Shown one piece after another: positions 30,824-53,110 of a stretch of DNA of 54,913 nucleotides (its first letter is position 1; each line of letters starts with the position of its first letter). This DNA is from a virus (taxonomy: Duplodnaviria > Caudoviricetes). The notes under the pieces are model-generated. The model had not been told where the DNA came from and made no database searches. It was given only the letters and a program-made list of their open reading frames with translations. Both the position numbers and the translations under genes were made by a program. The stretch spans positions 1-54,913 of the IMG/VR virus record IMGVR_UViG_3300021425_003774. One strand, written 5' to 3'.

Positions 30824-30833
30824 GGTAAAAGCT

Positions 30834-31508: not shown

Positions 31509-31513
31509 CTTTT

Positions 31514-31521
31514 TATAAATA
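31514..31521 (+). promoter_or_regulatory. T4-type late promoter TATAAATA
   Basis: Exact consensus upstream of gp22. Confidence 0.8.
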
Positions 31522-31584
31522 AAATAGACAAGTTTATTATAATTAGATATTTGTAAATTAAAAACAAATTTAAAGGAGAAAATA

Positions 31585-32568
31585 ATGGCAAACGTAGAAG
31601 AAAAATTCGTTGCTGATGATGGAGTCTCAAGTGTACCTGATGCTGTAACACCTGAAGGTGGAGAAGGCAAAAAGGACAAGCTGAAGAAGACAACAACTGA
31701 CGAGCCAAAAGGAGCTGCTGACGCTAAGAAAGTAACACCTGACCAAGGCGATGCAGGCAAGCCTGTACCTACTGCTGAAGAAACTGAGGCTGAAGCTGAA
31801 GTTGAAACAGTAGAAGAAGTAGTTGTAGAATCTTCAATTGAGTCAATCATTGAAGGCGAAGAATTATCAGAAGAATTCAAATCTAAAATATCTTTAGTAT
31901 TTGAAGCCGCATTAAACGAAGAAGTCGCAAAGCAGACTGAAACAATTCGCGAAGAGTTAACAAAATCTTTAGACGAAACATTAGAAGAAACTGTTGCTGA
32001 GAAATTAGAAGCAATTACAGAAAATGTTGATAAGTATTTAGATTACGTTGTCTCTGAATGGATGACTGAAAATGAAATTGCTATCGAATCTGGAATTAAG
32101 GTTGAGATGGCTGAATCATTAATGTCAGGTCTTAAGAACTTATTCGTTGAGCACAACGTATCAGTTGATGAAGAATCAGTTGATGTTGTAGCAAACTTAG
32201 AAACAACAGTTTCTGAATTAGAAGGTAAAGCAAACGATTTAGTAAACGAGAATATCGACTTACAAAAACAAATTGCTACTTTTAAAGCAGAACAAAAATT
32301 TGACGAACTTGCAGAAGGTTTATCTGAGAATCAGGTAGAGCGTTTGAAAGTATTGTCTGAAAAGCTTGATATTGAAGATCTTGATGCATACGCAGAAAAT
32401 CTTCAAGTAATTAAGGAATCATTCTTCAGTGATAAGCCGATTGTTGAAAAACATGACGTCCAGGAAGAGAATGATGAAATTATTCTAGAGGAACAGGAAG
32501 TAACTAAACCAGCTTCTGAGCACACCTCTATTAATGCTCTTGTTGAAGCTTTCAACACTAGAAAATAA
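31585..32568 (+). CDS. gp22: Prohead scaffold protein gp22
   Basis: LSEEFKSK..VFEAA; VDKYLDYVVSEWMTENEIAIESGIK; acidic coiled coil. Confidence 0.93.
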   Translation: MANVEEKFVADDGVSSVPDAVTPEGGEGKKDKLKKTTTDEPKGAADAKKVTPDQGDAGKPVPTAEETEAEAEVETVEEVVVESSIESIIEGEELSEEFKSKISLVFEAALNEEVAKQTETIREELTKSLDETLEETVAEKLEAITENVDKYLDYVVSEWMTENEIAIESGIKVEMAESLMSGLKNLFVEHNVSVDEESVDVVANLETTVSELEGKANDLVNENIDLQKQIATFKAEQKFDELAEGLSENQVERLKVLSEKLDIEDLDAYAENLQVIKESFFSDKPIVEKHDVQEENDEIILEEQEVTKPASEHTSINALVEAFNTRK

Positions 32569-32620
32569 GAATAATTGAATTTGGTTTTTTAAATTAAATT
32601 TAACTTAAAGGAGATCCAAA

Positions 32621-34527: not shown

Positions 34528-34746
34528 TTATTTTTTAGAGAAATAAGATCGAATCAGAAAGATTCTAGTGTATGCCACTATAGTCATAACTAAAGTGACC
34601 AGAGTGCCCAACATGACAGGGTCAGTAATACCAAACCGTTCTATATAGATATACAACAAAAAGAGGTTTAGAGGGTAATTTATGGCTAGGCCGGTTGCGA
34701 TTTGAAATGAAGTTTCTTTATGAATTCTTTTTGTTTCTGGTTTCAT
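34528..34746 (-). CDS. Small two-TM membrane protein
   Basis: Two hydrophobic segments; ATGA overlap with the hemC stop. Confidence 0.65.
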   Translation of the reverse strand: MKPETKRIHKETSFQIATGLAINYPLNLFLLYIYIERFGITDPVMLGTLVTLVMTIVAYTRIFLIRSYFSKK

Positions 34747-35585
34747 TTTATGTTTGTGCCGAGTTCACGACCAATAGTAATGTATTCTTCAATAGGTCCA
34801 TGATTAAGACTTAATTGCTGAGTTTCAAAATTCTTTGCTATCATGTGTATTGTCTTATTATCTATATATGAAAGTACACCAATAGGAGTATGACAATCTC
34901 CATCTATTTCTCTTAACATTGCCTTCTCTGCCATTGCACAAAACCAAGTATCAATATGATTCTTTGACCAAAGCTTTGCGAAAATTGCTTCATCACGCTC
35001 ATCGTTTAGCTTACGTGTTTGTAAAGCAATAACTCCTTGATTAGGAGCAGGTATCATATCTGCTGTTCCAAATATTCTACTTGCTTTTATAGTAAGTCCT
35101 AAAGCATCAAGACCTGCCTTTGCTAAAACAATTGCATCATATTCTCCATTTTCTTGTTTCGCAATACGAGTATCTATATTACCACGAATAGGAACAATCT
35201 CTGCACCTGGATAAAGATCCATTAATTGATACATTCTTCTTGGACTGCTTGTACCTATTGTTCTTGGATTAACTGCATTACCTATTAAACAATCTCTAAA
35301 GTCAGCTCTTGGTAATACACAAGGAATATCTAACAAGTGATCGTTATCTCTTGTCATGTCTTTCATTGCATGGCATGCAATATCAATATGATGTTCTATT
35401 AATGCGGCTTCTATTTCTTTTGTGAATACACCCTTTCCACCCATTTCTTGGATTGGTGTCTTTGGGTTAAGATCTGCTGTGGAATCTATAAGGACTTGTG
35501 TTGTGTCAAACTCTAAATGTTTTTGAGCTGCTTTAGTATAGGCAAGAGCAAGCTTTGATTTTCGAGTTCCAATTAATGGTATCAT
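34743..35585 (-). CDS. hemC: Porphobilinogen deaminase (hydroxymethylbilane synthase)
   Basis: GTRKSKLAL, GGKGVFTKEIE, HAMKD, GTSSPRR, IRGNIDTR, YDAIVLA.AGL, PAPNQG, cofactor Cys in GDCHTPIG. Confidence 0.93.
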   Translation of the reverse strand: MIPLIGTRKSKLALAYTKAAQKHLEFDTTQVLIDSTADLNPKTPIQEMGGKGVFTKEIEAALIEHHIDIACHAMKDMTRDNDHLLDIPCVLPRADFRDCLIGNAVNPRTIGTSSPRRMYQLMDLYPGAEIVPIRGNIDTRIAKQENGEYDAIVLAKAGLDALGLTIKASRIFGTADMIPAPNQGVIALQTRKLNDERDEAIFAKLWSKNHIDTWFCAMAEKAMLREIDGDCHTPIGVLSYIDNKTIHMIAKNFETQQLSLNHGPIEEYITIGRELGTNIK

Positions 35586-35600: not shown

Positions 35601-35675
35601 TGGTAGCCCGTAGGAGAATCGAACTCCTGTTGCATGGATGAAAACCATGTGTCCTAACCACTAGACGAACGGGCC
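35601..35675 (-). tRNA. tRNA-Glu(TTC)
   Basis: GGCCCGTTCGTCTAGTGGTTAGGAC...CATGG-TTTTCAT-CCATG...GGAGTTCGATTCTCC...ACCA; CCA is encoded. Confidence 0.95.
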
Positions 35676-38089: not shown

Positions 38090-38176
38090 TGGTACCGCGA
38101 GTCGGACTTGAACCGACAAGGCCGTTAAGCCGAGGGATTTTAAGTCCCTTGTGTTTACCAATTTCACCACCGCGGC
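38090..38176 (-). tRNA. tRNA-Leu(TAA)
   Basis: GCCGCGGTGGTGAAATTGGTAAACAC-AGGGA-CTTAAAA-TCCCT, long variable arm, GTCGGTTCAAGTCCGAC...ACCA. Confidence 0.95.
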
Positions 38177-39217: not shown

Positions 39218-39225
39218 TATAAATA
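39218..39225 (+). promoter_or_regulatory. T4-type late promoter TATAAATA heading the curli island
   Basis: Exact consensus 37 nt before the first + strand ORF, in a divergent intergenic region. Confidence 0.75.
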
Positions 39226-39262
39226 ACATTGAGGGTTTTTACCTTCCGATTACAGGATACTT

Positions 39263-39559
39263 ATGGAAGAAATATTTCAGCTTATATCAGACGTAGGTTT
39301 ACCTATTGCTGGTGCCCTTACGATGGGATTCTTCATATTCATTATTATTAAACAAATCTTTGAAGGAATCATAGACAGCATCGGCACCTTAACAATGTTC
39401 GCAGAAACATTGGAGAATAGAGCAACCACAATGTCAAATGAGATGATCAAGATTGATCTTCTTGTGAGTAGTGCATTAGGATTAAATCCTGACATCGAAA
39501 GAGTAGCCCGAGCAGAAAATTTTATAGAAGATGGCAAAGTAGACGTAAGAAGAGATTAA
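39263..39559 (+). CDS. Small membrane protein (YvrJ/holin-like N-terminus)
   Basis: LISDVGLPIA plus TM helix plus coiled coil. Confidence 0.6.
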   Translation: MEEIFQLISDVGLPIAGALTMGFFIFIIIKQIFEGIIDSIGTLTMFAETLENRATTMSNEMIKIDLLVSSALGLNPDIERVARAENFIEDGKVDVRRD

Positions 39560-39563
39560 TATA

Positions 39564-39833
39564 ATGGATGTAGCGAGTTTAGTCAGTGAGTATGGCTTTC
39601 CTGCCGTTATGGTAGTAGGTCTTGGGTATTTTGTATATTTTGTGTGGAATTTCGTTAACACAAAATTACAGCCTGAGATTGATAAGCAACACATGGCTTT
39701 AATCAAATTGATAGATAGAATGAGAATGTTAGATCAAGACTTAATACGATTACAACAGAAAGTTGATGTTGTACTGAAATATCGAGAAATTGAAGAATTG
39801 AAGAAAAAAGGTGAAAAGACTAATGAAGATTAA
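39564..39833 (+). CDS. Small membrane protein (YvrJ/holin-like N-terminus), paralogue
   Basis: LVSEYGFPAV plus TM helix plus coiled coil. Confidence 0.6.
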   Translation: MDVASLVSEYGFPAVMVVGLGYFVYFVWNFVNTKLQPEIDKQHMALIKLIDRMRMLDQDLIRLQQKVDVVLKYREIEELKKKGEKTNED

Positions 39834-40320
39834 TGGAACACATTTAGGATTGCTTGTAATAAGTTTCTATTTCACTGCGCAAGTCTGTGCAGAACCTATA
39901 GTACACAAATTCAAAAATCCGTCATTTAGCGGAGTAGGTACTGGTGCTCATTATTTAACAATTGAGAATCAGGAACACTCAAGAAAAGAACAAATCAAGG
40001 ATGCTATGGAAGCAGCCGAGAGAGCAGCACAACGAGAATTAGATAACTCGACACTTTCGAAGTTTATAAGAAACCTTGAAAGTAGAATTTATGCTCAGTT
40101 AGCAAAACAGTTAGTGGACAATATGTTCTCTAACGATAATGCAGTAAGGTTTGGATCTTTCGTATTAGAAGGATCTACCGTAACCTATGAAGTAATTACG
40201 AATGCAGATGGTACTGAATTTATTAAGATGACAATTGTTGATGAAAATGGTACTACAACTGTTATTGAGATTCCGATAGGAACAGGAAACTTCGGGGGCG
40301 GTGACCCAGATGGCGGCTAA
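39823..40320 (+). CDS. csgF: Curli assembly protein CsgF homologue
   Basis: Signal peptide, then IVHKFKNPSFSG...YLTIENQ; FIRNLESRIYAQL; terminal G.TT.IEIP; directly upstream of csgG. Confidence 0.85.
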   Translation: MKINGTHLGLLVISFYFTAQVCAEPIVHKFKNPSFSGVGTGAHYLTIENQEHSRKEQIKDAMEAAERAAQRELDNSTLSKFIRNLESRIYAQLAKQLVDNMFSNDNAVRFGSFVLEGSTVTYEVITNADGTEFIKMTIVDENGTTTVIEIPIGTGNFGGGDPDGG

Positions 40321-41257
40321 ATTACTTACAGCAATTATGTCAACTCTTATCTTGGCGAGTTGCGCACAAATGCCGCAATGGTCAGAAGGACCTGCGAATT
40401 GTGAATACGGGCAAGGAAGATACGTTGAAGGATTTAACAAAACTCGAGACGAACATGGAGACGGTTTAGTACTTGACCAAATTAATACAGGCGTTCGTAA
40501 ATATGTTGAGACAAAACAAATTTGTGTTGAACAGCCTCAGGTGGTTAAGTTACCTGCCTATATAGATTTACTTAATCTACCTCCTGCAGAAAATAAGCCT
40601 GTAGTAGCAGTATATGGATTTTTAGATAAGACAGGACAAAGAAAAGATTCTGTCACAGGACAGAGTTTCTCCACTGCGGTAACACAAGGTGGAACAGAAT
40701 TATTAATAGATGCTTTGAAAACAGCAGGTGGTGGAACCTGGTTCAGAGTAGTAGAAAGACAAGGTATTGACGCTCTTGTAAGAGAACGTCAAATCATTCG
40801 TTCAGGTCGTGATGAAGCGGCAAAGAAACTGGGCGAAGAATCTAAGGGTGTTGGCCCACTATTGTTCGCGGGAATGATAATTGAGGGCGGCATCATTGGT
40901 TATGATAGTAATGTAAAAACAGGAGGCCGCGGAGCAAGGACGCTCGGAATTGGCTTTAGTAGACAATATCGTCAGGATGTCGTGACTGTCTCCGTACGTG
41001 CAGTATCCGTTCTTACAGGTGAAATATTATTAAACGTCCAAACGAAGAAATCAATTCTGAGTTACGGCTCAGGAGGAGACGTCTTCCGCTTTATAGAGCA
41101 AGGTACTCAGTTGATTGAATACGAGGACGGAGTTGGTAATAATGAAAGTGTAACATACGCGGTACGAACAGCAATTGAAGCTGCCGTGCTAGAGATGGTG
41201 TATCAGGGTCACGAACGTGGCTTCTGGACAATTAACGATAAAAAAGAGGAAGAATAA
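40301..41257 (+). CDS. csgG: Curli secretion channel CsgG (outer-membrane lipoprotein)
   Basis: LASC lipobox; VAVYGFLDKTGQRK, FSTAVTQG, WFRVVERQG..L..ERQIIR, IIEGGIIGYDSN..TGG.GAR.LGIG, YRQD.VTV..RAVSV.TGEIL. Confidence 0.95.
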   Translation: MTQMAAKLLTAIMSTLILASCAQMPQWSEGPANCEYGQGRYVEGFNKTRDEHGDGLVLDQINTGVRKYVETKQICVEQPQVVKLPAYIDLLNLPPAENKPVVAVYGFLDKTGQRKDSVTGQSFSTAVTQGGTELLIDALKTAGGGTWFRVVERQGIDALVRERQIIRSGRDEAAKKLGEESKGVGPLLFAGMIIEGGIIGYDSNVKTGGRGARTLGIGFSRQYRQDVVTVSVRAVSVLTGEILLNVQTKKSILSYGSGGDVFRFIEQGTQLIEYEDGVGNNESVTYAVRTAIEAAVLEMVYQGHERGFWTINDKKEEE

Positions 41258-41988
41258 TGATACGTAAAATATTAGGCCTATCTTTATTATGTGCGTTTTC
41301 TTTCAATGCGCATGCGCAAGCGACTGACGACAATGAAATCAATATCGACCAAACTGGTGATACTTTAACATTGTATGTAGATCAGTATGGATATGGTAAC
41401 AAGATCGGATTGGATAACTTTTCAACCGGATCAAGTGCTATGCCGATAACAGGTTCTTCATTAACATTTAATATTGACCAAATAGGAAATGAAAACTTGT
41501 TCTTTGGTACTTATATCGGTGACAGTACAACTGTTAACGCTTTATTTACTGGAGATTCTAACTCTTGGGATTGGAACGTAGGTTATATTGGTTCATCCGA
41601 TACTTCAACAATTGATGTTGATATTACTGGTGATTCAAATACTATGGACTTTGACCAAGGTTATAACGCAAGTGCAGAAAGATTAGACCTTGACTTAACG
41701 GTTATTGGAGACAGCAATATTTTTGATGTTGACATTGACGTTGACGACGCTGTGTGGAATATGGATATCACAGGCGGAAGCAATAACATCAACACAATGC
41801 AGAAAGACGGAGCAGAGCATGAAATTAACTTGACTCACGTTGGGTCTTCTGCTGATATTGATATTAACCAATTATCTGGAACATGCCCTACAGGCGTAAG
41901 TACTTGTAATGGTATTATCACACTAGATATTGATAGTGAAAATGCTACAATCCAAATTAATCAGAAAGACAGTTCAACAGATTCGTAA
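41257..41988 (+). CDS. Secreted curlin-repeat protein (CsgA/CsgB-like)
   Basis: Signal peptide (AHA), then repeats NEINIDQTGD, VDQYGYGN, IDQIGNEN, DITGDSN, IQINQ. Confidence 0.75.
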   Translation: MIRKILGLSLLCAFSFNAHAQATDDNEINIDQTGDTLTLYVDQYGYGNKIGLDNFSTGSSAMPITGSSLTFNIDQIGNENLFFGTYIGDSTTVNALFTGDSNSWDWNVGYIGSSDTSTIDVDITGDSNTMDFDQGYNASAERLDLDLTVIGDSNIFDVDIDVDDAVWNMDITGGSNNINTMQKDGAEHEINLTHVGSSADIDINQLSGTCPTGVSTCNGIITLDIDSENATIQINQKDSSTDS

Positions 41989-43120
41989 TTCCAGATTCTT
42001 TGTCCTGTCTTTGTGCATGCTTCTGTCACTAGCGGCAAGTGCAAGTACAGGTGCGGCAGAGAATATTGGTGGAATTGTTGAACAGACTGGTAACGGTAAG
42101 ATTGTCCGGGAAGAAGGCGCTGTACTTGATGCGGCCCTTATCCCGGACATTCAACTTAACGATACCGCAGAAACCTCTCAAGGAAGAATGCTTATTCGAT
42201 TCTTGGATGAAGCAGAGCTTTCTTTAACAGAACACACAAAGGTATACATAGATAAAGTATACTACGACCCAGACCCAAGTAAATCAAAAATGGCAATGCG
42301 TATGGCATTAGGCACAGCTCGGTTTGCGTCTGGTCGTTTAGGAATGGTCAATAAGAATAATATTGATATTCAAACACCCACGGCAACGGTATCAGTTCGT
42401 GGAACAGATTTTACAACAACCATTGACGAGTTAGGTAGATCACTTGTAATACTTCTACCTGACCAATATGGTAATCCTTCAGGCGTTATTGATGTAACAA
42501 ATAACGGTGGTACAATTACTTTAGATGAAGCCTACGCTGCTACAATGGTAAGCAGTTTAGATACGGCGCCAACAAGATCAATCACAATGCAAAACATTAC
42601 TCCAACAATGATTGATAATATGTTTATTGTAAGTCCACCACCTGAAGTAAAGGAAGCATTAGAAGAACAATATGAAGACGAATCAAACCAAGATCAAGGA
42701 TTACTTGATTTTGACTTTTTAGAATTCAATGAATTAGAATATGATGCGTTGGAAGAAGATGCTTTAGAATTTACGGAGCTTGACATTGATTATCTTGATG
42801 TTGATTTTTTAACGGACTTATTGGATGTAGTTGAAGAACTTGTAAAAACAACTGCATCTCTTGATGATAGAGCAATATCAGGAAGTTCATTAGGAGCAGA
42901 ATTAAAGGGAGCAACATTCGGTATGAATACTGACTCTCAATATAACATTTATGAATCAGCAGGAAAAATATTCTTTTATAGAAATGTCAATGGAGTAATA
43001 AATATTGCGTTCGCAGTAGATTCTTCGGTTAGGATTGAAACGAATGTAGATGGTTACGAAGGAATCATAGATCTTAACGGAGGAAATGATTCCATAATCG
43101 TAATTAGACAAGGAGGATAA
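41930..43120 (+). CDS. FecR-domain exported protein (start uncertain)
   Basis: IG.I.E..G...I.R, D...T..GR..I.FLD...L.LTEHT...ID, G.ARF.SG, I.TPTATVSVRGTDF; acidic tract. Confidence 0.82.
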   Translation: MIVKMLQSKLIRKTVQQIRNSRFFVLSLCMLLSLAASASTGAAENIGGIVEQTGNGKIVREEGAVLDAALIPDIQLNDTAETSQGRMLIRFLDEAELSLTEHTKVYIDKVYYDPDPSKSKMAMRMALGTARFASGRLGMVNKNNIDIQTPTATVSVRGTDFTTTIDELGRSLVILLPDQYGNPSGVIDVTNNGGTITLDEAYAATMVSSLDTAPTRSITMQNITPTMIDNMFIVSPPPEVKEALEEQYEDESNQDQGLLDFDFLEFNELEYDALEEDALEFTELDIDYLDVDFLTDLLDVVEELVKTTASLDDRAISGSSLGAELKGATFGMNTDSQYNIYESAGKIFFYRNVNGVINIAFAVDSSVRIETNVDGYEGIIDLNGGNDSIIVIRQGG

Positions 43121-43128
43121 ATAATATT

Positions 43129-43914
43129 ATGAAAACTCGTAGTGAACATGAAGAAAGAGCCTGGGCAAGATTTAGAAAACAAACTCCTTATATATGGACA
43201 ACAAAAGACTTAGCACATGTCTTTGCGTTAGGTCTATTATTTGGTATGTTAATGTTAACCCCTTCCGTACTCGCAGACAATTTAATCACAATTGAACAGA
43301 CAGGTGATAATCTAAATTTAGAGATTCAGCAATACGGTGCTGATAACGAAGTTAAAATGTTAGACCAATATTCGTTCATTAATTCATCGTCATTAGATTT
43401 ATTAATTGTTCAATATAATACTACAGGTAATGATAACACAATAGTATTTGATGAAATCAATGGCACAGGTAATGAATTTAAATTAGGACAAGGTGTTGCT
43501 TTTGATAATACCACACAAGGTTGGAATTATGATGGTTACGAAGGTGGTGGTCATTATATGGAAATAGATTTATACGGTAATGATAACTTTGTTGAATGGC
43601 ATCAAACAAATCAAAGTGGTGCAACTGACGGACATGATTTTAACTTACATGTTGCTGGGTCTGATAATTGGATAGATGGAAGACAACAATCTTCAGGCGC
43701 AAAAGAAGCAAACGTTACAATTTACAATTCAGACAATACTTTAACATTCAGACAAAAAGGCGCCAACGCAAACCATACAGCAAATATTACTTTAGATGGT
43801 ATTTACGGAACGGATGCGCTTATCAGACAAAATAGCACAACCAATCAAACATATAACTTATCAGTAGATTGTTATACAGTTGGTGGTTGTTCAGTAAACG
43901 TGATACAAGAATAA
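43129..43914 (+). CDS. Second secreted curlin-repeat protein (CsgA/CsgB-like)
   Basis: Hydrophobic signal (..PSVLA), then NLITIEQTGDN, EIQQYGADN, IDLYGNDN, TFRQKG, VNVIQE. Confidence 0.72.
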   Translation: MKTRSEHEERAWARFRKQTPYIWTTKDLAHVFALGLLFGMLMLTPSVLADNLITIEQTGDNLNLEIQQYGADNEVKMLDQYSFINSSSLDLLIVQYNTTGNDNTIVFDEINGTGNEFKLGQGVAFDNTTQGWNYDGYEGGGHYMEIDLYGNDNFVEWHQTNQSGATDGHDFNLHVAGSDNWIDGRQQSSGAKEANVTIYNSDNTLTFRQKGANANHTANITLDGIYGTDALIRQNSTTNQTYNLSVDCYTVGGCSVNVIQE

Positions 43915-44225
43915 TGGAATTAGATATTTACGGAAATCCAGTAGGAACATTATATCCGGGTGATGAAGGTTGCCCTCAAGATATGATTTGTTTAACCGAA
44001 GAAGGATTTAACCAAATGCTTGCTGAAGCTGATATGCATTACAATGCGGAAACGTTTCAAGTTGAGCCGATGGGCGACGCAGAAGCTATTATAGATTTTA
44101 CAACAGATTTGCTATTTTTAGATATATGGACAATTTTAAATATGGCAGTTCCTTTAACAATATTCGCAGTGTATGGATTGACTCTATATGCTGGATTCAA
44201 ATGGGTACAAAAACAATTTAATTAA
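43914..44225 (+). CDS. Hypothetical membrane protein
   Basis: Start moved to ATG 43914 (TAATG coupling); C-terminal TM helix. Confidence 0.6.
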   Translation: MELDIYGNPVGTLYPGDEGCPQDMICLTEEGFNQMLAEADMHYNAETFQVEPMGDAEAIIDFTTDLLFLDIWTILNMAVPLTIFAVYGLTLYAGFKWVQKQFN

Positions 44226-44227
44226 TT

Positions 44228-45175
44228 ATGAAAACATTATTACAAAGAACTATTCAGGATAAAGAAGTCAATTTATATCCTGTTTGGTTAATGAGACAAG
44301 CCGGAAGATATATGCCAGAATATATGGCAATGAAAGAAAAATCAAATGGCTTTTTAGATATGGCTCTTACTCCTTGGAAGGCTGCTGAAATTACAATGCA
44401 ACCTATTAAAGAGTTTGATATGGATTGTGCAATTATATTCTCAGACATACTTATTGTGAATTATGCACTTGGTCAAGAATTAGATTATACGCCTGGTCCT
44501 GTTCTTGGACCATATTCAGAAAATTTTTGGAACACAACTTCAGACGAGTTTTACGAAAAGTGTAAATATGTATATGAAGCAATAAAAATAGTTAGAGAAG
44601 AACTTGACGATAGTAAATCTCTAATTGGTTTTGCTGCAGCACCATATACAATATGCAAGTATATGTGTGATGAAAAAAGATTAGATGTGGTACAAAAATT
44701 AGTACCTTATATTATTGAACATCTTTGCATGCAAATTGAAGCAGGATGTGATACAGTACAAATTTTTGATAGTCATGCTTGTGATATATCAGAAGATGAT
44801 TTTTATGAATATGTCATTGAACCAACAAAGCAAATTGTTGATGTAATAAGAGCACATTATCCTGATGTATGTATCATTGCTTTTCCAAGACTTGTTGGTA
44901 CAAAAATAAACGATTACATAGAACAAGTAAATCCTGATGCAATTAATATCAGTGATGATTTGCCTGTGGACGAAATAAATGCAGAAGTCATTCAAGGTGG
45001 CATTTCAGTTAAAAGATTAATAAAAGGAGAAGACATAACGCCAGTTTTAAATAAGATGAAAGACAGGCCGTATATTGTAAACCTTGCTCATGGAATTCAT
45101 AAGACAACTCCAGTTGAACATGTAAGGCAACTTATAAATACGACAAAGATGTACCGTAAACATTTCGGAGCTTAA
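44228..45175 (+). CDS. hemE: Uroporphyrinogen decarboxylase
   Basis: PVWLMRQAGRYMPEY, AIIFSDIL, LIGFAAAPYT, QIFDS, NLAHGI. Confidence 0.93.
   Translation: MKTLLQRTIQDKEVNLYPVWLMRQAGRYMPEYMAMKEKSNGFLDMALTPWKAAEITMQPIKEFDMDCAIIFSDILIVNYALGQELDYTPGPVLGPYSENFWNTTSDEFYEKCKYVYEAIKIVREELDDSKSLIGFAAAPYTICKYMCDEKRLDVVQKLVPYIIEHLCMQIEAGCDTVQIFDSHACDISEDDFYEYVIEPTKQIVDVIRAHYPDVCIIAFPRLVGTKINDYIEQVNPDAINISDDLPVDEINAEVIQGGISVKRLIKGEDITPVLNKMKDRPYIVNLAHGIHKTTPVEHVRQLINTTKMYRKHFGA
45133..45140 (+). promoter_or_regulatory. Possible T4-type late promoter TATAAATA for GT2-PlcP-cyclase
   Basis: Exact consensus inside the hemE 3' end, 36 nt before the GT2 start. Confidence 0.5.
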
Positions 45176-45176
45176 T

Positions 45177-45887
45177 ATGAAAGACGAAGTTACGATAGTT
45201 GTCCCGTGTAAAAACGAACAATTTTATATTCATCATTTGCTTGATGGATTAAAGAAACAAAAAGGTATAGAAGGTATAAGAATTTATATCGCAGATTGTT
45301 CAACCGATGACACAAGAAAGGTCATTGAAGATAATAAAGAAAATTTAGATGTTGTTATTATTGAAGGAGGACCTGTTTCAGTTGCTAAAAATAACGGAGC
45401 AGCTTTAGTAACCACACCGTATATTCTTTTCATAGATTCTGATGTTAGATTTTTTTCAAATACAGTAATCTATGATACTCTAAAACAAATGAAAGAAGAA
45501 GATTTACATTTAATAGGATTAAGTATTAAATGTTATGACAATGATTGGAGAGCAAAGATTGGCTTTTCAATGTTTAATGTAGTAAATAAGATATTGTCAA
45601 GATGGATTCCCTTTGCTGTAGGAGCGTATTGTTTAACTCGTAGAGATAAGTTTTATGAGCACGGTGCGTTTCCTTGTAAGTATCCAACATCAGAAGATTT
45701 TCACTTGTCGAGAAAATATGATCCAAAGAAATTTAAACTTGCCAAACATTACTTTGGACAAGACAGTAGAAGATTCAAGCAGATGGGATATTTTGGTATG
45801 TCCTGGTATTTAATTAAAAATTTCTTATATAGAAATAACCAAAAGCATTGGGATAATATAGATGAAAAAAGATATTGGTCATCGTAG
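45177..45887 (+). CDS. Glycosyltransferase family 2
   Basis: TIVVPCKNE, IAD.STD.T, AKNNGA, LFIDSD (DxD), SED, DSRRF. Confidence 0.9.
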   Translation: MKDEVTIVVPCKNEQFYIHHLLDGLKKQKGIEGIRIYIADCSTDDTRKVIEDNKENLDVVIIEGGPVSVAKNNGAALVTTPYILFIDSDVRFFSNTVIYDTLKQMKEEDLHLIGLSIKCYDNDWRAKIGFSMFNVVNKILSRWIPFAVGAYCLTRRDKFYEHGAFPCKYPTSEDFHLSRKYDPKKFKLAKHYFGQDSRRFKQMGYFGMSWYLIKNFLYRNNQKHWDNIDEKRYWSS

Positions 45888-46602
45888 TGTATTCATTTCA
45901 GATTTACATTTAGGTAGCAAGCACTGCAGAGACGAAGACTTATTAAAATTTCTCAAAGAAGTTAGAACAGAAAAGCTTTATTTGGTCGGTGATATTATTG
46001 ATGGTTGGAGACTTCAGAAAAAATGGTATTGGCCAAACAATCATAATAGAGTAGTTAAAGAACTTATTCGTATTTCAAAATATACAGATGTTTATTGGAT
46101 AAGCGGTAATCACGATGAGTTCTTAAGAACAATTCCAAATATTAATGTAGGTAATATTGAAACACATAATAGATTAACTCATATTGGAGCTGATGGAAAA
46201 AAATATCTTGTAGTACATGGAGATATGTTTGACTATCTAATGAGAACAAAATTTGGTAAAACAGTAATGCATCTTGGTGACTGGGGTTATGATAGATTAA
46301 TCAACATTAATTATATAGTAAATAAAATAAGAAACTTCTTTGGATATAAACCTTGGTCATTAGCAAAATACCTTAAAAGAAAAGCTAAGTTAGCCTCAAA
46401 CTTTATTGGCGAGTTTGAAACAGAAATGGTTAAGTACGCAAGAAAGAAAAATTATGATGGAATTATATGTGGTCATATTCATCATGCAGAAATAAAACAA
46501 CACGACGAAATCACATATATGAATGATGGTGATTGGTGTGAAAGCTGTTCAGCATTAATTGAAGATCACGAAGGTAATTGGAAAATAAATTATTATGCTT
46601 AA
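45862..46602 (+). CDS. Calcineurin-like metallophosphoesterase, PlcP-like phospholipase C (LpxH superfamily)
   Basis: FISDLHLGS, LVGDIIDGWRL...WYWP, GNHDEFLR, YLVVHGD.FD, LGDW.YD, NFIGEFE, ICGHIHHA, N.GDW.ESC. Confidence 0.8.
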   Translation: MKKDIGHRSVFISDLHLGSKHCRDEDLLKFLKEVRTEKLYLVGDIIDGWRLQKKWYWPNNHNRVVKELIRISKYTDVYWISGNHDEFLRTIPNINVGNIETHNRLTHIGADGKKYLVVHGDMFDYLMRTKFGKTVMHLGDWGYDRLININYIVNKIRNFFGYKPWSLAKYLKRKAKLASNFIGEFETEMVKYARKKNYDGIICGHIHHAEIKQHDEITYMNDGDWCESCSALIEDHEGNWKINYYA

Positions 46603-48640
46603 ACAATTAACCAAGTGGTGGACAGTCTTATTTACAATCGCAGGATTTGCTTCTTTAAGTATTATTAACCCAAATATAATTCAAAGTATAGAATACGCTT
46701 ATTATGATACCTTACAGCAAAATAAAGAAAAAGAAATTATTGAAGACATTGTACTCGTCAACATCGACGAAAAAGCAATCGCTGCCAAAGGTCAGTACCC
46801 TTGGCCTCGTGGTTCAATTGCTGATTATTTACGCGACGGTCCTGACGATAGCCTTTATGTTCTTAACGTAATATATTCTGAAGAAGATAGATTTGGGGAA
46901 GACAACTTACTTGCATTTGAAATGCAACAAAAGGCGGTGGTGTTGGCATCAGCACCATCACAACAAATAACCGGAGGAGTAGGCAACTTTGTTGGAGTTG
47001 CTACGTTTGGAGAACAAAATGAAAATTGGCTTTACTCGTTCCCAGGTTTATTATATCCTGTGGATCAAATTAGTAGTTGGGCTTTTGGTGTTGGGGCCAC
47101 TGTTAGCATACCTGACCAACCCACAGGAGTCGTGCGAAGGTCGCCGCTCGTTATACAAGCAGCCGGGAATTCCTACCCATCTCTCGCCCTCGATACCTTA
47201 CGTGTGTACACAGGAGAACCAAGCTACCAAATGAAGGTAGGCACCAATGGTGTTGAATGGGTAAGAATAGGAAAGCAAGATCCTATTACAACAAATAGCT
47301 TTTCTGAATTACCAATTGCGTTTTGGAATCAATTTGAACAAATAAGTATCACCGATCCTTTACCTAGTGGAAAGGTTCTTATCTTCGGAGTAACAGCCGA
47401 AGGTGTCTCTAATCCAGTTTCAACCCCAACGGGTGCAATGTATCCCCACGAAGTTCAAGCACATCTGATTCAGACCGTTCTTTCAGGAGTTGAAATAAAA
47501 ATTCCCGACTGGTCTGCAATATTTGAGCTTTTCTTTTTGGTGGTTGTATGTCTAGGAATCCTTGGAGCGGTCTATGGATTGCCCATAATTCCTGGGGTGA
47601 TAACATCTCTTCTTCTTGTCGGGTCCGGATACGGAGTAAGCTGGTGGCTTTGGAGCGACTCACTAACATTTGTTGACGCATCTTTGATTTCATTAGGTTC
47701 CTTAGTGGTGTTTGCACAATCATCGTTCAACAATTACTATTTAACATTTTTAGAAAAGCGGGCAATCATGAAACAGTTTGCCGGTTATTGCTCTCCAGAA
47801 GTTGTTACTATTTTACAACAAAATCCTTCTCTTGTCAAGGATGGAATGAAGAAAGATGTAAGTATTGTATTTAGTGATCTTCGAGGATTTACTCCATTAG
47901 GCGAAAGCTTCGGCGATGATGTTAGAGGGCTGACTACTTTGATGAATGGTTATATGGATGCTATTACACAACCTGTTCTAGATGCAAATGGAATGATCAT
48001 AAAGTATATTGGAGACGCAAGTATGCATATACATAATGCTCCAATGGAAGATAACGATCATGCAAAGACTGCAGTCCAAACTGGTATTAATATGTTAAGA
48101 GCGGTGGAAAAATTTAATGATAAGATTACAAAAGAAGGAAGGCCTCCAATTGGTATGGGGGCTGGGATTAACAGTGGCTTGGGTTATGTTGGTGAGATGG
48201 GTTCTACAAGTCGACATAGTTATGACATCCTTGGAGATTCTGTTTCAACAGCTGCACGAATTGAGTCTAAATGTAAAGAATATGGTTGCTTATTATTAGT
48301 TGGAGAAGAAACGGTTAGTAGATGTAATCCTGAAGAGTTTCTTTTCTTAAAGGTAGATGATCTTGCTGTGAAAGGAAAATCAGTAGGAGTTGGAATATAC
48401 ACAGTGTTGGACTTGGTAAAAGATAAATACAATAAACCAGCAGAAATGCATGAAGCGATGCATTCAAATTATCAAAAGCAAAACTTTGATAAGGCGATCA
48501 AAATATGTAATGACCTTATGGATTGCTTCGAAGGACAAATGCAAGGTTATTATAAAATGTGGATTGAGCGTTGTGAATATATGAAAACGCAAGATTTGCC
48601 AAAGGATTGGAATGGAGTTTTTATCGCGACCACTAAGTAG
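46595..48640 (+). CDS. CHASE2-domain membrane class III adenylate/guanylate cyclase
   Basis: N-terminal TM; IVLVNIDE..I...GQYPWPR (CHASE2); three TM helices; FSDLRGFT, IKYIGD, GAGINSG, GD.V.TAARIE. Confidence 0.92.
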   Translation: MLKQLTKWWTVLFTIAGFASLSIINPNIIQSIEYAYYDTLQQNKEKEIIEDIVLVNIDEKAIAAKGQYPWPRGSIADYLRDGPDDSLYVLNVIYSEEDRFGEDNLLAFEMQQKAVVLASAPSQQITGGVGNFVGVATFGEQNENWLYSFPGLLYPVDQISSWAFGVGATVSIPDQPTGVVRRSPLVIQAAGNSYPSLALDTLRVYTGEPSYQMKVGTNGVEWVRIGKQDPITTNSFSELPIAFWNQFEQISITDPLPSGKVLIFGVTAEGVSNPVSTPTGAMYPHEVQAHLIQTVLSGVEIKIPDWSAIFELFFLVVVCLGILGAVYGLPIIPGVITSLLLVGSGYGVSWWLWSDSLTFVDASLISLGSLVVFAQSSFNNYYLTFLEKRAIMKQFAGYCSPEVVTILQQNPSLVKDGMKKDVSIVFSDLRGFTPLGESFGDDVRGLTTLMNGYMDAITQPVLDANGMIIKYIGDASMHIHNAPMEDNDHAKTAVQTGINMLRAVEKFNDKITKEGRPPIGMGAGINSGLGYVGEMGSTSRHSYDILGDSVSTAARIESKCKEYGCLLLVGEETVSRCNPEEFLFLKVDDLAVKGKSVGVGIYTVLDLVKDKYNKPAEMHEAMHSNYQKQNFDKAIKICNDLMDCFEGQMQGYYKMWIERCEYMKTQDLPKDWNGVFIATTK

Positions 48641-49241
48641 TTTATTACTAGGATTGTTTTTATTAGCAGTTCCAGTAGAAGCATATGTTCCAAAAGACCC
48701 ATTTATTTCTGAACTCTCAGAAGCACGAAAAGAACTTATCAGAATGGGGCATACAGCTCCTTACAATGAATTAACAGTACGAAGAGTCGTTGTTGGTAAG
48801 GCAAGAATAATGCCGAATGGTGCAATCATTACATTACCTCATGGTCCTGATATGGTTCCCTCTTTTTACGCCTTACAATACGATCCAAAATGGCAAGTAA
48901 AAAAAGAACCTGATTATACAATATCTTATTGGTCCGACAGAGAAAAACGAATGATAGATATTTTATTTTTCTCTGCTCAAATACTTGATGTTTATTCAAC
49001 TTATCGTGGATTAAAATACGAATGTATCACTGAAGCAAATCCTTTATTACCTCAAGTACCTGACCTAACAGAATTAATAGGATTAAAACTTGTTGTCATT
49101 GGTGGATTTAAAAATTGGATTGAAGCCGATGAAAATTTTTGGTATGGGTGGAAGCTCGGAGCAGGAATGACAACAGGTATGGTTACAGTAAATAACTTTA
49201 GGCTTTTGAAAAAAGCACAAAAGCAATGTAGAAGAAGATAA
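48612..49241 (+). CDS. Hypothetical membrane/exported protein
   Basis: Signal-like N-terminus; LDVYSTY.GL...EANPL motif; hydrophobic helices. Confidence 0.6.
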   Translation: MEFLSRPLSSLLLGLFLLAVPVEAYVPKDPFISELSEARKELIRMGHTAPYNELTVRRVVVGKARIMPNGAIITLPHGPDMVPSFYALQYDPKWQVKKEPDYTISYWSDREKRMIDILFFSAQILDVYSTYRGLKYECITEANPLLPQVPDLTELIGLKLVVIGGFKNWIEADENFWYGWKLGAGMTTGMVTVNNFRLLKKAQKQCRRR

Positions 49242-49265
49242 AAAAAGGTGGCCTTTCGACCACCT
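49240..49265 (-). terminator. Rho-independent terminator at a convergent junction
   Basis: Minus strand AGGTGGTC-GAAA-GGCCACCT followed by a T-run. Confidence 0.8.
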
Positions 49266-49288
49266 CAACCGGTTGGATTGCACTCAGG

Positions 49289-52093: not shown

Positions 52094-53110
52094 TTAGATC
52101 TTTACTGAATCTGTATCAATGTCGGCCATAAATCCTTCTGGATTCACATTACCGAGGACTATTTCGTTCTTCAGGTAATCTATCGTATCGTAAATAGCAT
52201 CCTGTATCGTCTTCTCAGGGACCCATCCTAATTCGTTTGCCTTATCAATATTGGCAAAAATTGTATGAGCTTCTCCATTGATCTCTGGCATCATATCGTA
52301 TTCCAAAGCATCTACTGAGATTTCGTCTTTCAAATAGTCGAAGATGATCTCCGATATTTCGTATAGAGAATGACTTTGATTCATACCTAAGTTATATGTC
52401 TGATTAATAGTTCTTTCATCAGTTAGGCATTGTAGGTGGAACTTATTTACGTCATCGACATGAATAAAATCTCGTCTACGTGTACCGTCTCCAAATATGA
52501 TTGGATTATTACCACCTAATAGTCTAAGTGCAACTCCTGCGAATAGAGGAGGTACAGTTCTCTTATAGTCTTGAATCGGTCCTGCGATATTAAAATACCT
52601 TAGAGCAGTATACTTCAATCCTCTTGTCCTTGCATAACTATCTGCTATCAAAGCAACTGCTGCTTTTGAAGCTGCATAGAATGTTGTAGGATCTGATTGA
52701 GATTCTTCGTAACCGGTCTCAGGTAGTTCAACATTTTCATATACGGCTGATGTCTCTGAAAAGATAACTCTGTCACATCCACACTCAAGTGCTGCATTAA
52801 ATACATTAATAGAACCAATGATATTGTTCTCTGCTGCAAGTTTAGGATTATTATGACAGTCGTAAATAGATACTAAACCACCAAAGTGAAATACCACATC
52901 AGGCTTTTCAATACGCATGATATTTGTAATATCGTATGTGTCACGAATATCTGCTTTGTAGAATTTACTTGCTTGGTCATGAAACTCATCAACATATACC
53001 GATTGAGCAAGATTATCAACTAAGACAACTTCATGCCCGTTTGCATTAAGCATAGGAAGTAAATTAGTACCTACGAATCCTGTGCCACCCGTAATAAGAA
53101 TTTTACTCAT
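52094..53110 (-). CDS. NAD-dependent nucleotide-sugar epimerase/dehydratase (GalE-like)
   Basis: ITGGTGFVG, YAASK, LRYFNIAGP, GDG...RDFIHVDDV. Confidence 0.92.
   Translation of the reverse strand: MSKILITGGTGFVGTNLLPMLNANGHEVVLVDNLAQSVYVDEFHDQASKFYKADIRDTYDITNIMRIEKPDVVFHFGGLVSIYDCHNNPKLAAENNIIGSINVFNAALECGCDRVIFSETSAVYENVELPETGYEESQSDPTTFYAASKAAVALIADSYARTRGLKYTALRYFNIAGPIQDYKRTVPPLFAGVALRLLGGNNPIIFGDGTRRRDFIHVDDVNKFHLQCLTDERTINQTYNLGMNQSHSLYEISEIIFDYLKDEISVDALEYDMMPEINGEAHTIFANIDKANELGWVPEKTIQDAIYDTIDYLKNEIVLGNVNPEGFMADIDTDSVKI

Follow-up and report, generated by a model that had tools for sequence, protein, structure and literature searches.

The analysed stretch of DNA (the window; 54,913 nucleotides) is a T4-like myophage contig with sheath, tube, protease and scaffold genes, and the completeness of the virus record was put at 29% by CheckV. 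Positions 39218-49241 of the window hold 13 open reading frames, all on the plus strand and overlapping or separated by gaps of only a few bases; these coordinates bear out the co-directional, tightly coupled run described in a sequence-only reading of this DNA. The genes encode two small membrane proteins (TM1, TM2), CsgF, CsgG, a curlin-like protein (Cur1), a FecR-domain protein, a second curlin-like protein (Cur2), TM3, HemE, a glycosyltransferase (GT2), a metallophosphoesterase, a CHASE2 receptor cyclase and TM4. A Pfam HMM search matched all of the families named in that reading for CsgF, CsgG, FecR, uroporphyrinogen decarboxylase, GT2, metallophosphoesterase and CHASE2 plus cyclase. The core products are all envelope-directed. 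The block is an already published viral curli cassette and not a new one, and its function is what we infer below; the earlier observation is confirmed as real, and its interpretation is partly supported.

TM1 (39263..39559; 98 aa; phrog_18771, 5e-23) has a transmembrane helix at its N-terminus and then a long helix, matches no Pfam family and is kept in the relatives. TM2 (39564..39833; 89 aa; phrog_18771, 6.3e-26) aligns with TM1 and is its paralogue. The label 'histidine kinase', which the accessible text of the viral T8SS papers gives to these small proteins, was unsupported here. The CsgF homologue (39811..40320; 169 aa) has a signal peptide and matched PF10614 (4.8e-16) and phrog_35372 (2.5e-37). 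The CsgG homologue (40301..41257; 318 aa; PF03783, 3.2e-54) carries a lipobox-like LASC close to its N-terminus, and the Pfam domain begins at residue 95; the NCBIfam CsgG model matched at 1.1e-51, under its equivalog cut-off. The identity of this CsgG is 51.5% to that of HTVC008M and 48.4% to that of Melnitz. Cur1 (41257..41988; 243 aa, with signal peptide) and Cur2 (43129..43914; 261 aa) had been named curlins, and this naming held in part. Their Curlin_rpt scores of 20.2 and 19.1 bits are both below the Pfam cut-off of 20.7 bits, while the mutual homology of the two proteins (hhalign probability 98.6%, E 8e-16) and the beta-solenoid predicted for Cur1 (AF2 pLDDT 79.7) speak in its favour. 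Cur1 also matched NCBIfam CsgA at 4.7e-6. The second-ranked structural match of the Cur1 model was Pontibacter CsgA (8c50_A; VIA Z 16.4, rmsd 9.0 A), standing among many generic beta-helices. Given the sub-cut-off Pfam scores, the rmsd of the CsgA match and a search against solved chains that gave no sequence match for the curlin-like proteins, the curlin assignment is weak.

The exported FecR-domain protein (41930..43120; 396 aa as listed; PF04773, 3.7e-8; phrog_37870, 8.3e-64) has a conserved Met in alignment A1 which suggests a start at 41942. It is laid out as a FecR fold, an acidic linker and a small C-terminal beta domain, and Foldseek matched it to the C-terminal signalling domain of PupR (6ovk_R; E 2.7e-4), a periplasmic domain solved in 6ovk bound to the signalling domain of an outer-membrane transducer. 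The CHASE2 receptor with class III adenylate cyclase domain (46595..48640; 681 aa; PF05226, 9.8e-30; PF00211, 6.4e-18; phrog_35576, 7.2e-140) belongs to the Melnitz-type clade, with 48% identity, and retains both metal Asp residues, the Lys-Asp pair and the Arg. In the clade of the window's cyclase (15 of 41 viral sequences) the class III transition-state Asn is replaced by Ser, so that adenylate cyclase activity is not assured. The 51 scanned ORFs of the window, a contig of only about 29% of a genome, gave no cAMP receptor. TM4 (48612..49241; 209 aa), an exported or membrane protein, scored 23.0 bits against DUF5658 (cut-off 25.2), and a homologue follows the cyclase in 36 of the 61 related loci.

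Between Cur2 and the cyclase lies a variable slot. Its first gene, TM3 (43869..44225; 118 aa as listed), encodes a membrane protein that more likely starts at an internal ATG near 43914, and the Pfam and PHROGs searches gave no family for it. TM3 is present in 21 of the 61 related loci and is also found directly upstream of GT2 or phosphoesterase in three loci with no curli match in their flanks (L205, L258 and L259); as it is shared by both kinds of locus, the border between cassette and insert is not sharp. HemE, a uroporphyrinogen decarboxylase (44228..45175; 315 aa; PF01208, 3.3e-70), scored 244.7 bits against TIGR01464, whose cut-off is 302.95, and is 34-45% identical to alphaproteobacterial HemE among the matches listed. 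GT2, a family 2 glycosyltransferase (45177..45887; 236 aa; PF00535, 2.4e-15), is followed by a PlcP-type (LpxH-like) metallophosphoesterase (45862..46602; 246 aa; PF00149, 8.1e-15), which LpxH models matched under their cut-offs. The phosphoesterase is 30-51% identical to the product of a gene present in 141 of 401 alphaproteobacterial genomes, and in 10 of 10 loci examined this homologue is followed by a GT4 gene, an order that matches the published plcP-agt layout (PMC4796936). That bacterial lipid renovation operon resembles the phage pair in setting an LpxH-like metallophosphoesterase beside a glycosyltransferase; it differs in that its partner is a downstream GT4 (Agt), whereas the phage has a short GT2 upstream, and in that the phage pair lies behind a late-promoter motif within a curli cassette. 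Judged by these sequence features, GT2 and the phosphoesterase are a putative PlcP-type lipid-remodelling cassette with a late-promoter motif of its own.

The T4 late promoter claimed at 39218 is backed by the presence of the motif, by its placement and by its conservation in relatives. The T4-type late-promoter motif TATAAATA stands at 39218..39225, 45 nt upstream of the first gene, and again at 45133..45140 within the 3' end of hemE, 44 nt upstream of the GT2 start; a related locus (L025) likewise has it before GT2. The window's total of 9 copies does not exceed chance (8.1 expected; at least 9 in 43 of 100 shuffles). All 9 are on the plus strand and 18-71 nt upstream of an ORF start, and copies also precede the known late genes for sheath, tube, protease and scaffold. 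Of 59 distinct related loci, 38 have the motif within 120 nt upstream of the first cassette gene, compared with 1.6% of background windows, and it was found in none of the 41-59 regions upstream of TM2, CsgG, Cur1, FecR, Cur2 and the cyclase in these loci.

Viral contigs yielded 377 confirmed CsgG relatives, and among the best 80, which were kept, the order TM1-TM2-CsgF-CsgG-Cur1-FecR-Cur2-[slot]-cyclase-TM4 is maintained; the synteny comparison showed the gene order recurring across 61 related loci, with Cur1, Cur2, FecR and the cyclase conserved equally with the pore genes. The core order of small membrane proteins, CsgF, CsgG, curlin, FecR, curlin and cyclase is annotated in the T8SS (curli) regions of Pelagibacter phage HTVC008M (KC465899) and Methylophilales phage Melnitz (MZ577097), marine T4-like myoviruses like the present phage, as described in the accessible parts of PMC7029224, PMC9004378 and PMC9599517. 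Those regions have one or two small proteins ahead of CsgF, here two, and they differ from the window in the slot, which here carries TM3, hemE, GT2 and the PlcP-type phosphoesterase. The statement that phage csgF/csgG are mostly discussed as a pore pair alone is outdated, since the accessible text of PMC9599517 (2022) already gives a viral curli block with curlin cargo, FecR and cyclase, and suggests as roles aggregation (sibling capture), defence against superinfection, and import. The claim that this phage also encodes cargo and a sensor holds for the genes but, by the same text, not as a novelty. The term CHASE2 is absent from PMC9599517. The present analysis adds the frequencies of slot cargo, the PlcP-type identity of the pair, hemC in the window, the bacterial FecR-CHASE2 neighbourhoods and the lack of histidine-kinase support.

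Bacterial curli systems (csgBAC-csgDEFG and alphaproteobacterial csg loci) also place CsgG/CsgF beside signal-peptide repeat proteins; seven alphaproteobacterial CsgF loci pair curlin-repeat proteins with CsgF/CsgG, the ORF picks having recovered CsgG in 5 and CsgF in 4 of them. Unlike these, the phage block has repeat proteins below the Curlin_rpt cut-off, adds FecR, the CHASE2 cyclase and small TM proteins, and lacks CsgE, CsgC and CsgD; their absence, as previously asserted, was upheld by an HMM scan with no match among the 13 island ORFs and 38 further window ORFs. Neither FecR nor CHASE2 was seen near CsgF in the bacterial loci (0 of 7). Of the 40 best alphaproteobacterial FecR loci, 10 have a CHASE2 gene within roughly +-10 kb, where less than 1 is expected by chance (a rough estimate from counts); the neighbourhood is thus recurrent but a minority. 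In 13 hand-picked loci the FecR/CHASE2 pair is accompanied by TPR/Slam-like barrel, OmpA or type I secretion genes. The bacterial matches reach only the N-terminal domain of the phage FecR protein, and none matches its acidic linker and C-terminal domain, which are phage-specific. Because FecR-CHASE2 neighbours recur and none of the seven curli loci has either, the block gives the appearance of a curli exporter to which a bacterial FecR/CHASE2 pair was fused; the two phage proteins are most plausibly a bacterial pair for envelope signalling joined to that exporter. In the accessible text of the respective papers, the CHASE2 receptor cyclases of S. meliloti (CyaD1, CyaD2, CyaK) combine, as in the phage, a CHASE2 periplasmic sensor with a class III cyclase; the gene of an exported FecR-domain protein, smc02177, adjoins cyaD1 and was dispensable for the plant signal assayed (PMC5498481), and the outer-membrane protein NsrA, in place of which the phage has CsgG/CsgF, works with CyaK/CyaD (PMC7529298, PMC13001267). 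A Burkholderia LysM-FecR/CHASE2 kinase operon is described in the accessible part of PMC5192318.

The whole is probably best explained as a copy of the published curli cassette, a bacterial FecR/CHASE2 pair and separate slot inserts. The T4-type late promoter would drive the cassette, and late in infection a CsgG/CsgF channel would be set into the outer membrane of the host and would export the two signal-peptide-bearing, curlin-like beta-solenoid proteins, which may form fibres of benefit to the phage. The periplasmic FecR-fold protein, possibly in contact with the CHASE2 receptor adenylate cyclase, would link either the condition of the export machinery or an external cue to cAMP in the infected cell. 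CsgG/CsgF would here occupy the place of the bacterial outer-membrane partner, that is the Slam-like barrel, OmpA or type I secretion genes, with NsrA as the published case. HemE, GT2 and the PlcP-type phosphoesterase would be separate auxiliary genes settled in the variable slot, hemE paired with the phage's hemC (34743-35585) as a tetrapyrrole gene and the other two serving phospholipid-to-glycolipid remodelling.

A different reading, taken from Buchholz et al. (2022), is that CsgG/CsgF form a gated pore, similar to a pinholin or secretin, that has been repurposed to time or trigger lysis, with TM1 and TM2 holin-like and fibres irrelevant. The late-promoter motif at the head of the block, the N-terminus of CsgG, about 40 residues longer than in the CsgG of the bacterial CsgF loci examined, and the absence of clumping in Melnitz-infected cells, as reported in the accessible text of PMC9004378, are in accordance with it. 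The small proteins have a holin-like build, and the nearest named Atlas clusters of TM2 are YvrJ (0.87) and Holin_BhlA/UviB (0.86); scores below 0.9 are leads only, and none of 39 TM1/TM2 family members matched Holin_BhlA or YvrJ in Pfam even at E up to 5. CsgG is an outer-membrane protein, whereas holins act at the inner membrane. A pore-only role also leaves the equal conservation of the curlin-like, FecR and cyclase genes unexplained, and we regard lysis timing as unlikely. Still less credit is given to an uptake channel, an option in the accessible text of PMC9599517, in which the CsgG pore, ungated as CsgE was not found in the 51 window ORFs scanned, would admit cofactors or iron compounds to the periplasm with FecR as an iron-linked regulator, the sense in which the viral T8SS papers, where accessible, take it. 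The name and fold of FecR agree with this, but the role of iron regulator was rejected, the protein having a signal peptide and no cytoplasmic anti-sigma part; scanning 51 window ORFs revealed neither an ECF sigma factor nor a TonB-dependent transducer. In bacteria, its relatives do not belong to iron regulons; they either form the N-terminal domain of large adhesin-like exoproteins (cadherin, Big, RTX) or neighbour CHASE2 sensors. An uptake role would also leave unexplained why two secreted repeat proteins are conserved.

The earlier view of one integrated 13-gene envelope system would have hemE, GT2 and the phosphoesterase serve curli, for example by fibre glycosylation, lipid anchoring or membrane change around the pore. 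Tight coupling on a common strand and the tie of TM3 to both gene sets favour it, as does the position of GT2-phosphoesterase between FecR and cyclase in another, divergent phage (L256; 59-67% identity) and downstream of a cyclase fragment in L260. The gene content of relatives goes against it, with hemE in 11 and GT2 plus phosphoesterase in 1 of the 61 related loci, Cur2 only in 36 and Cur2 with TM3 in 12, and the full slot set of the window recurring in only one (L025). Moreover, of 80 viral loci 32 have GT2 immediately ahead of the phosphoesterase gene, and 29 of these 32 pairs have no curli genes in their flanks, against 3 that do; the pair has its own TATAAATA, its bacterial homologue has the plcP-glycosyltransferase layout, and hemC lies elsewhere in the window. 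The membership of the lipid and haem enzymes was therefore not borne out, these being cargo of a variable slot, and the integrated system is judged highly improbable. That the block is an assembly chimera or host insert, as several genes of bacterial type and relatives in bins labelled bacterial MAGs might suggest, has a negligible chance. T4-like structural and replication genes flank it on one contig, its G+C is even over the island borders, and its gene order is shared by the 61 related loci and two isolate genomes. DNA contigs of public run X1, which may be the source sample, match 44344-45664 with 0 and 45666-47437 with 3 differences, and run X5, from another study, likewise covers the stretch, the junctions being spanned by DNA contigs of both studies; the phage origin stood up to this check of order and junctions.

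In one study, contigs from RNA libraries cover csgG and cur1 in part, at depths of 10.3 and 14.3, and the capsid region at 44-65; these are coverage only and carry no transcript starts, strand or timing, and DNA carry-over is possible because the coverage of the stretch in one RNA run is so even. No clear plus-strand intrinsic terminator was found after the cassette. A G+C-rich hairpin with a T-tail on the minus strand only (49245..49266) lies directly past the last gene and fits a terminator of converging minus-strand genes.

Thirteen open reading frames were found in series at 39263-49241, all on the + strand and with slight overlaps or gaps between them, and the G+C content was level across the island borders. 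Pfam assigned CsgF (PF10614, 4.8e-16), CsgG (PF03783, 3.2e-54), the FecR-domain protein (PF04773, 3.7e-8), hemE (URO-D PF01208, 3.3e-70, residues 3-307), the glycosyltransferase GT2 (Glycos_transf_2, 2.4e-15), the phosphoesterase (Metallophos, 8.1e-15) and the cyclase, which carries CHASE2 (PF05226, 9.8e-30, residues 21-319) and Guanylate_cyc (PF00211, 6.4e-18, residues 419-596). The four small membrane or exported proteins TM1, TM2, TM3 and TM4 were assigned to no family, TM4 showing a sub-threshold DUF5658 match. The order csgF, csgG, curlin, FecR, curlin and cyclase on one strand, which the sequence-only reading had proposed, was borne out by Pfam and PHROGs. The 54.9-kb virus record is linear and about 29% complete, and it contains a T4-like structural set at 20617-33937 (+) with terminase, portal, sheath, tube, prohead protease, scaffold and major head protein (PHROGs).

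The same adjacent csgF/csgG, curlin, FecR, curlin and cyclase genes on one strand make up the viral T8SS (curli) cassette of pelagiphages (PMC9599517, 2022). That paper gives the region in podo- and myoviruses as HK, CsgF, CsgG, CsgA/B, FecR, CsgA/B and AC, states that FecR, HK and AC are absent from bacterial curli operons, reports cassette genes from every one of the 65 stations examined as well as from metatranscriptomes, and suggests that they serve in defence against superinfection, in aggregation or in import. A pelagimyophage 'curli operon' was reported in 2020 together with the proposal of 'sibling capture' (PMC7029224), and a gated pore timing lysis was proposed in 2022, no clumping being observed (PMC9004378). 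Since these three papers describe the region and its proposed roles, the suggestion that the phage builds and regulates an amyloid-like surface structure late in infection is already in print; the island is one more example of a known cassette and adds no new kind of system.

CsgG was matched by tblastn at 51.5% in the Pelagibacter phage HTVC008M and at 48.4% in four records of the Methylophilales phage Melnitz, while megablast of the island against isolate phages gave no match. The GenBank annotation of both isolates has the gene order of the window; in Melnitz two small hypothetical genes are followed by CsgF, CsgG, a curlin repeat protein, a FecR domain protein, another curlin repeat protein and an adenylate/guanylate cyclase. 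Scanning of viral contigs with CsgG yielded 391 pattern matches; confirmation left 377, and the 80 best of these were retained. The synteny check on the proposed gene order, made by tblastn with the 13 window proteins, revealed a single order across these best 80 of 377 loci and the two isolates, namely TM1-TM2-CsgF-CsgG-Cur1-FecR-Cur2-(slot)-cyclase-TM4, where Cur1 and Cur2 are curlin-like repeat proteins and the slot is a variable stretch between the second curlin gene and the cyclase gene. With 377 confirmed CsgG relatives in viral contigs the cassette is highly prevalent in the ocean, and it would supply a new envelope structure to hosts without curli genes. A scan of genome contigs with the FecR alignment recovered 7 loci only, at 49-61% identity and all on MAG-bin contigs. 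Their interpretation as true bacterial relatives was dropped; they are probably mis-binned phage contigs, because G001:C7 has CsgF, FecR and CHASE2 side by side. The seven cassette-bearing contigs (L083-L089) belong to MAGs assigned to Sphingobacteriales, Rhodobacterales, Synechococcus, Planctomycetaceae and Saprospirales.

The outer-membrane lipoprotein CsgG and CsgF are shared with bacterial curli, whereas the CsgE, CsgC and CsgD features of the bacterial system are missing from the window ORFs scanned. A lipobox-like LASC is legible in the CsgG sequence, and the protein scored 175.9 bits against the NCBIfam CsgG equivalog, the cut-off of 505 not being reached. The absence of csgE, csgC and csgD noticed earlier agrees with the Pfam results, as the CsgE gate, CsgC chaperone and CsgD regulator had no match among the 13 island and 38 other window ORFs of a record holding about 29% of the genome. 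Cur1 and Cur2 (both +) scored 20.2 and 19.1 bits for Curlin_rpt against a cut-off of 20.7. The two are homologous (hhalign probability 98.6%, E 8e-16) and both contain Q-x-G-x-x-N-type repeats; the NCBIfam CsgA model gave 26.6 bits (cut-off 160). The structural model of Cur1 was all-beta (pLDDT 79.7, pTM 0.75) and was placed by VIA-align in the beta-helix class, with a SufD-like chain at rank 1 (Z 16.9) and Pontibacter CsgA 8c50_A at rank 2 (Z 16.4, 18% identity, rmsd 9.0 A over 192 residues). Foldseek returned nothing for this model at E <= 1e-3, and sequence searches of Cur1 and CsgF against solved structures gave no match. The earlier identification of curlins is therefore kept in part: a curlin-like beta-solenoid is supported, and Cur1 and Cur2, both below the Curlin_rpt cut-off, are candidate members of the CsgA/B family.

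The published cassette has one or two small upstream genes named 'histidine kinase' (PMC9599517). Both positions are filled in the window, by TM1 and TM2, which are conserved in relatives and are paralogues (about 19% identical, 89-98 aa). Both have one transmembrane helix, at the N-terminus, and a long helix besides. HisKA and HATPase_c were matched by none of 39 members of the TM1/TM2 family at E up to 5, and Pfam gave no recurring family among these 39, holin or kinase. The 'histidine kinase' label is thus unsupported, no kinase domain having been recognised. The nearest named Atlas clusters, YvrJ (0.87) and Holin_BhlA/UviB (0.86), are leads only.

The contents of the slot were compared in 61 loci spanning FecR to cyclase, near-identical contigs being kept in. 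Cur2 alone was present in 36 loci, Cur2 with TM3 in 12, Cur2 with TM3 and hemE in 8, and Cur2 with hemE in 2; the two isolates had no Cur2 match at E 1e-5. The full set of the window, that is Cur2, TM3, hemE, GT2 and phosphoesterase, occurred in a single relative (L025, GT2 98% identical). The phosphoesterase matched LpxH models below the cut-offs only. Its relatives are numerous (7967 at E <= 1e-10 among 8000 candidates scored), many of them at 61-69% identity on contigs of up to 273 kb and under the JGI name LpxH. In the alphaproteobacterial sample 141/401 genomes had a homologue at 30-51% identity, a tally that includes the unpublished genome G243, and a GT4 gene lay directly downstream at 10/10 loci examined of the 12 fetched. 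The plcP-agt layout is likewise phosphoesterase then glycosyltransferase (PMC4796936). The window pair, with an LpxH-like phosphoesterase homologous to bacterial plcP-type genes beside a glycosyltransferase, would share these features with PlcP-glycosyltransferase lipid renovation.

Of 83 confirmed viral loci 80 were kept, and in 32 of them GT2 is the gene immediately upstream of the phosphoesterase. Matches to CsgG, FecR, curlin, hemE or cyclase within 5-kb flanks were seen at three of these 32, L197, L256 and L260, and L197 is the same contig as L025. The L256 locus, from a divergent phage (IMG/VR contig, 59-67% identity), has GT2 and phosphoesterase between FecR and cyclase with no second curlin match; this more distant example is the second in which the lipid cassette lies within a curli block. 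TM3 homologues occur just ahead of GT2 or phosphoesterase in three further loci (L205, L258, L259) with no curli match in the flanks, so that TM3 may belong to either unit. Among isolate phages the phosphoesterase has relatives in Pelagibacter phage Mosig (45.9%) and Synechococcus phage S-SRM01 (34%), and no relative of the window GT2 was found there.

hemE scored 244.7 with TIGR01464 (cut-off 302.95), in two stretches. Its length is some 30 residues below that of the cellular forms, and it is 34-45% identical to alphaproteobacterial HemE among the matches listed; 243 of 391 genomes matched, the unpublished G243 and G043 included in the tally, and no true relative was found among phage isolates. 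A second tetrapyrrole-pathway gene, hemC (porphobilinogen deaminase), is located at 34743-35585 (-), about 9 kb from hemE (Porphobil_deam, 7.2e-58). Haem genes are mentioned for one pelagimyophage group in PMC7029224. hemE is read as a putative tetrapyrrole auxiliary gene and the GT2-phosphoesterase pair as a putative lipid-remodelling cassette. They are read as two unrelated auxiliary sets for which the cassette slot served as landing site.

The FecR protein starts with a segment resembling a signal peptide; a FecR domain comes next, then an acidic linker and, at the C-terminus, a small beta domain. Its AF2 model had a mean pLDDT of 57.5 and was confident only at residues 80-225 (pLDDT 70-89). 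Foldseek matched this part with 6ovk_R, the periplasmic signalling domain of the anti-sigma regulator PupR (E 2.7e-4), and with 4m0h, which is a putative anti-sigma factor (3.4e-4); a sequence search of FecR against solved structures gave no match. By PF04773 and the confident part of the model, the phage protein shares the periplasmic FecR fold of FecIRA-type regulators. No second Pfam domain and no cytoplasmic anti-sigma part was found in it, and neither a sigma factor nor a TonB-dependent receptor was found among the 51 window ORFs scanned, so that the cytoplasmic anti-sigma domain, the ECF sigma partner and the TonB-dependent transducer of FecIRA signalling are all missing there. On the ORFs scanned, the phage FecR is therefore not a FecIRA-type regulator. 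Its C-terminus was also considered as a curlin-like nucleator on account of the 'IxIxQ' ending and rejected, with hhalign against Cur1 giving a probability of 1.3% and the C-terminal pLDDT being mostly <65.

The alphaproteobacterial sample comprised about 400 genomes. The profile of the phage FecR matched 111/401, one of these being the phage-like contig itself, CHASE2 was present in 178/401 and CsgF in 9/401. The bacterial FecR matches covered the N-terminal domain only, and they often lay where a very long open frame begins. Among the 40 best FecR places taken regardless of neighbours (up to +-10 kb, several cut by contig ends), a CHASE2 gene was near FecR in 10, where, given about one CHASE2 match per genome, our rough estimate is <1 by chance. 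In 13 loci hand-picked for close FecR and CHASE2 matches (Pfam on 57 of 76 ORFs), one recurrent member was an exoprotein with a FecR domain, which either stood alone or was fused to cadherin/Big or RTX repeats, and another was a CHASE2 protein of the cyclase or the PP2C phosphatase kind. The outer-membrane component found in between or next to these was TPR/SlipAM (Slam-like) in L132 and L142, with homologues in L137, L144, L140 and L141, OmpA in L136 and type I secretion genes in L143. Slam-type translocons serve surface lipoproteins. A Slam-like barrel as regular third partner was rejected and is taken as limited to a subset, because such a protein was found at only 2/40 of the unbiased FecR loci. 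The triad of FecR-domain exoprotein, TPR/Slam-like outer-membrane protein and CHASE2 cyclase or CHASE2-PP2C phosphatase was observed in L132, L137, L140-L142 and L144, and in L144 it adjoins a Crp-family cNMP-binding regulator. At the 7 bacterial CsgF loci curlin-repeat proteins were present, the ORF picks recovered CsgG in 5 and CsgF in 4, and no FecR or CHASE2 was found among the 58 ORFs scanned of 113 called.

Earlier studies also place the two families together. In S. meliloti the FecR-domain gene smc02177 adjoins the CHASE2 cyclase gene cyaD1 (PMC5498481), and the CHASE2 cyclases depend on the outer-membrane barrel NsrA for sensing a protein signal (PMC7529298, PMC13001267); in a Burkholderia biofilm operon a LysM-FecR gene lies beside a CHASE2 histidine kinase (PMC5192318). 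We argue that the phage FecR and cyclase are a cognate bacterial signalling pair rather than an iron regulator accompanied by a stray enzyme. In our reading, whose mechanism is inference, the phage cassette is a curli exporter joined to this FecR/CHASE2 envelope-signalling pair. This link was not found in the text of PMC7029224, PMC9004378 and PMC9599517, and the literature search on CHASE2 with FecR or Slam returned no phage paper. Complex prediction for the CHASE2 periplasmic part (26-318) with FecR (45-235), each supplied with its alignment, scored 0.00 and 0.20 where the mark is 0.32, which speaks neither for nor against binding.

In the cyclase, CHASE2 is bounded by transmembrane segments and a class III cyclase domain comes after it. 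This is the layout of the CHASE2 receptor class III adenylate cyclases, and its best solved relatives were adenylate cyclases. Catalysis in class III cyclases involves two metal-binding Asp, a substrate Lys-Asp pair, a transition-state Asn and an Arg. The alignment of 41 viral and 9 bacterial sequences revealed that both metal Asp are kept in all, as are the Lys and the Arg. In the clade of the window (15/41 viral sequences, Melnitz included) the Lys-Asp is the ATP-type pair and Ser stands at the transition-state Asn position; Asn is retained in the other viral clade, which includes HTVC008M, and in the bacterial sequences.

Taken jointly, these observations allow a reading, to which we give a low probability, in which the cassette works mainly as an outside-in sensor and fibre production is not its purpose. 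The phage would here have acquired the bacterial FecR/CHASE2 pair and replaced its Slam- or NsrA-like outer-membrane partner by CsgG/CsgF, the curlin-like proteins would act as surface antenna or reported cargo, and the infected SAR11-type cell would turn an outside or envelope cue into cAMP, tuning lysis timing or host metabolism. If so, the possible cues would include neighbouring cells, superinfecting phage or export load, and the cassette would be a functional analogue of T4 lysis inhibition. 

The window sharpens the question, as the cassette is set apart from two unrelated auxiliary sets landing in its slot, FecR and cyclase are argued to be a cognate pair and the 'histidine kinase' label is removed; attention is therefore directed to the cAMP output and the FecR-CHASE2 contact.

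The motif TATAAATA, taken earlier as a T4 late promoter, lies at 39218, 45 nt ahead of the first island gene. Its count in the window was 9 against 8.1 expected, and >=9 copies were seen in 43/100 shuffles, showing no excess over chance. All nine copies are on the + strand and 18-71 nt ahead of ORF starts, including those of sheath, tube, protease and scaffold. Related viral loci gave 59 distinct upstream regions for the first small gene, and in 38 of them the motif was present at <=120 nt (background 1.6% of 120-nt windows); it was present in none of the 41-59 upstream regions each of TM2, CsgG, Cur1, FecR, Cur2 and cyclase. Another copy, at 45133 within the 3' end of hemE, lies ahead of GT2, as in the single GT2-bearing slot relative. 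The hairpin past the last island gene has a T-tail on the minus strand only. In the public RNA run X17, contigs covered the capsid region at depth 44-65, a csgG part (40946-41373) at 10.3 and a cur1 part (41700-41960) at 14.3; the RNA evidence consists of contigs, from which transcript starts, ends, strand or timing are not readable. The RNA run X16 covered 29/30 bins, so evenly that DNA carry-over is possible.

Parts of the stretch were found in 20 public runs from 14 studies. DNA contigs of run X1 matched 44344-45664 at 0 differences and 45666-47437 at 3, and X1 may be the source sample; run X5, from another study, covers the stretch too. Eleven DNA runs from eight studies (P4-P11) each contained exactly 0.67 of the sampled words of 39250-49240, which suggests a common variant sharing about two thirds of this stretch.

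Elsewhere in the window, a minus-strand block just upstream of the island includes tRNA genes for Glu(ttc) at 35601-35675 (-) and Leu(taa) at 38090-38176 (-). Sugar-nucleotide genes occur amid the structural genes at 15119-15898 and 22923-23372 (+) and at 52094-53110 (-), the set comprising a cytidylyltransferase with mannose-6-phosphate isomerase/cupin, a second cytidylyltransferase-like gene and an NAD-dependent epimerase/dehydratase. At 3-11627 (+) a giant open frame, no shorter than 3874 aa, runs off the 5' contig end; it is probably a very long tail fibre, because it has a C-terminal Peptidase_S74 (endosialidase chaperone) domain.
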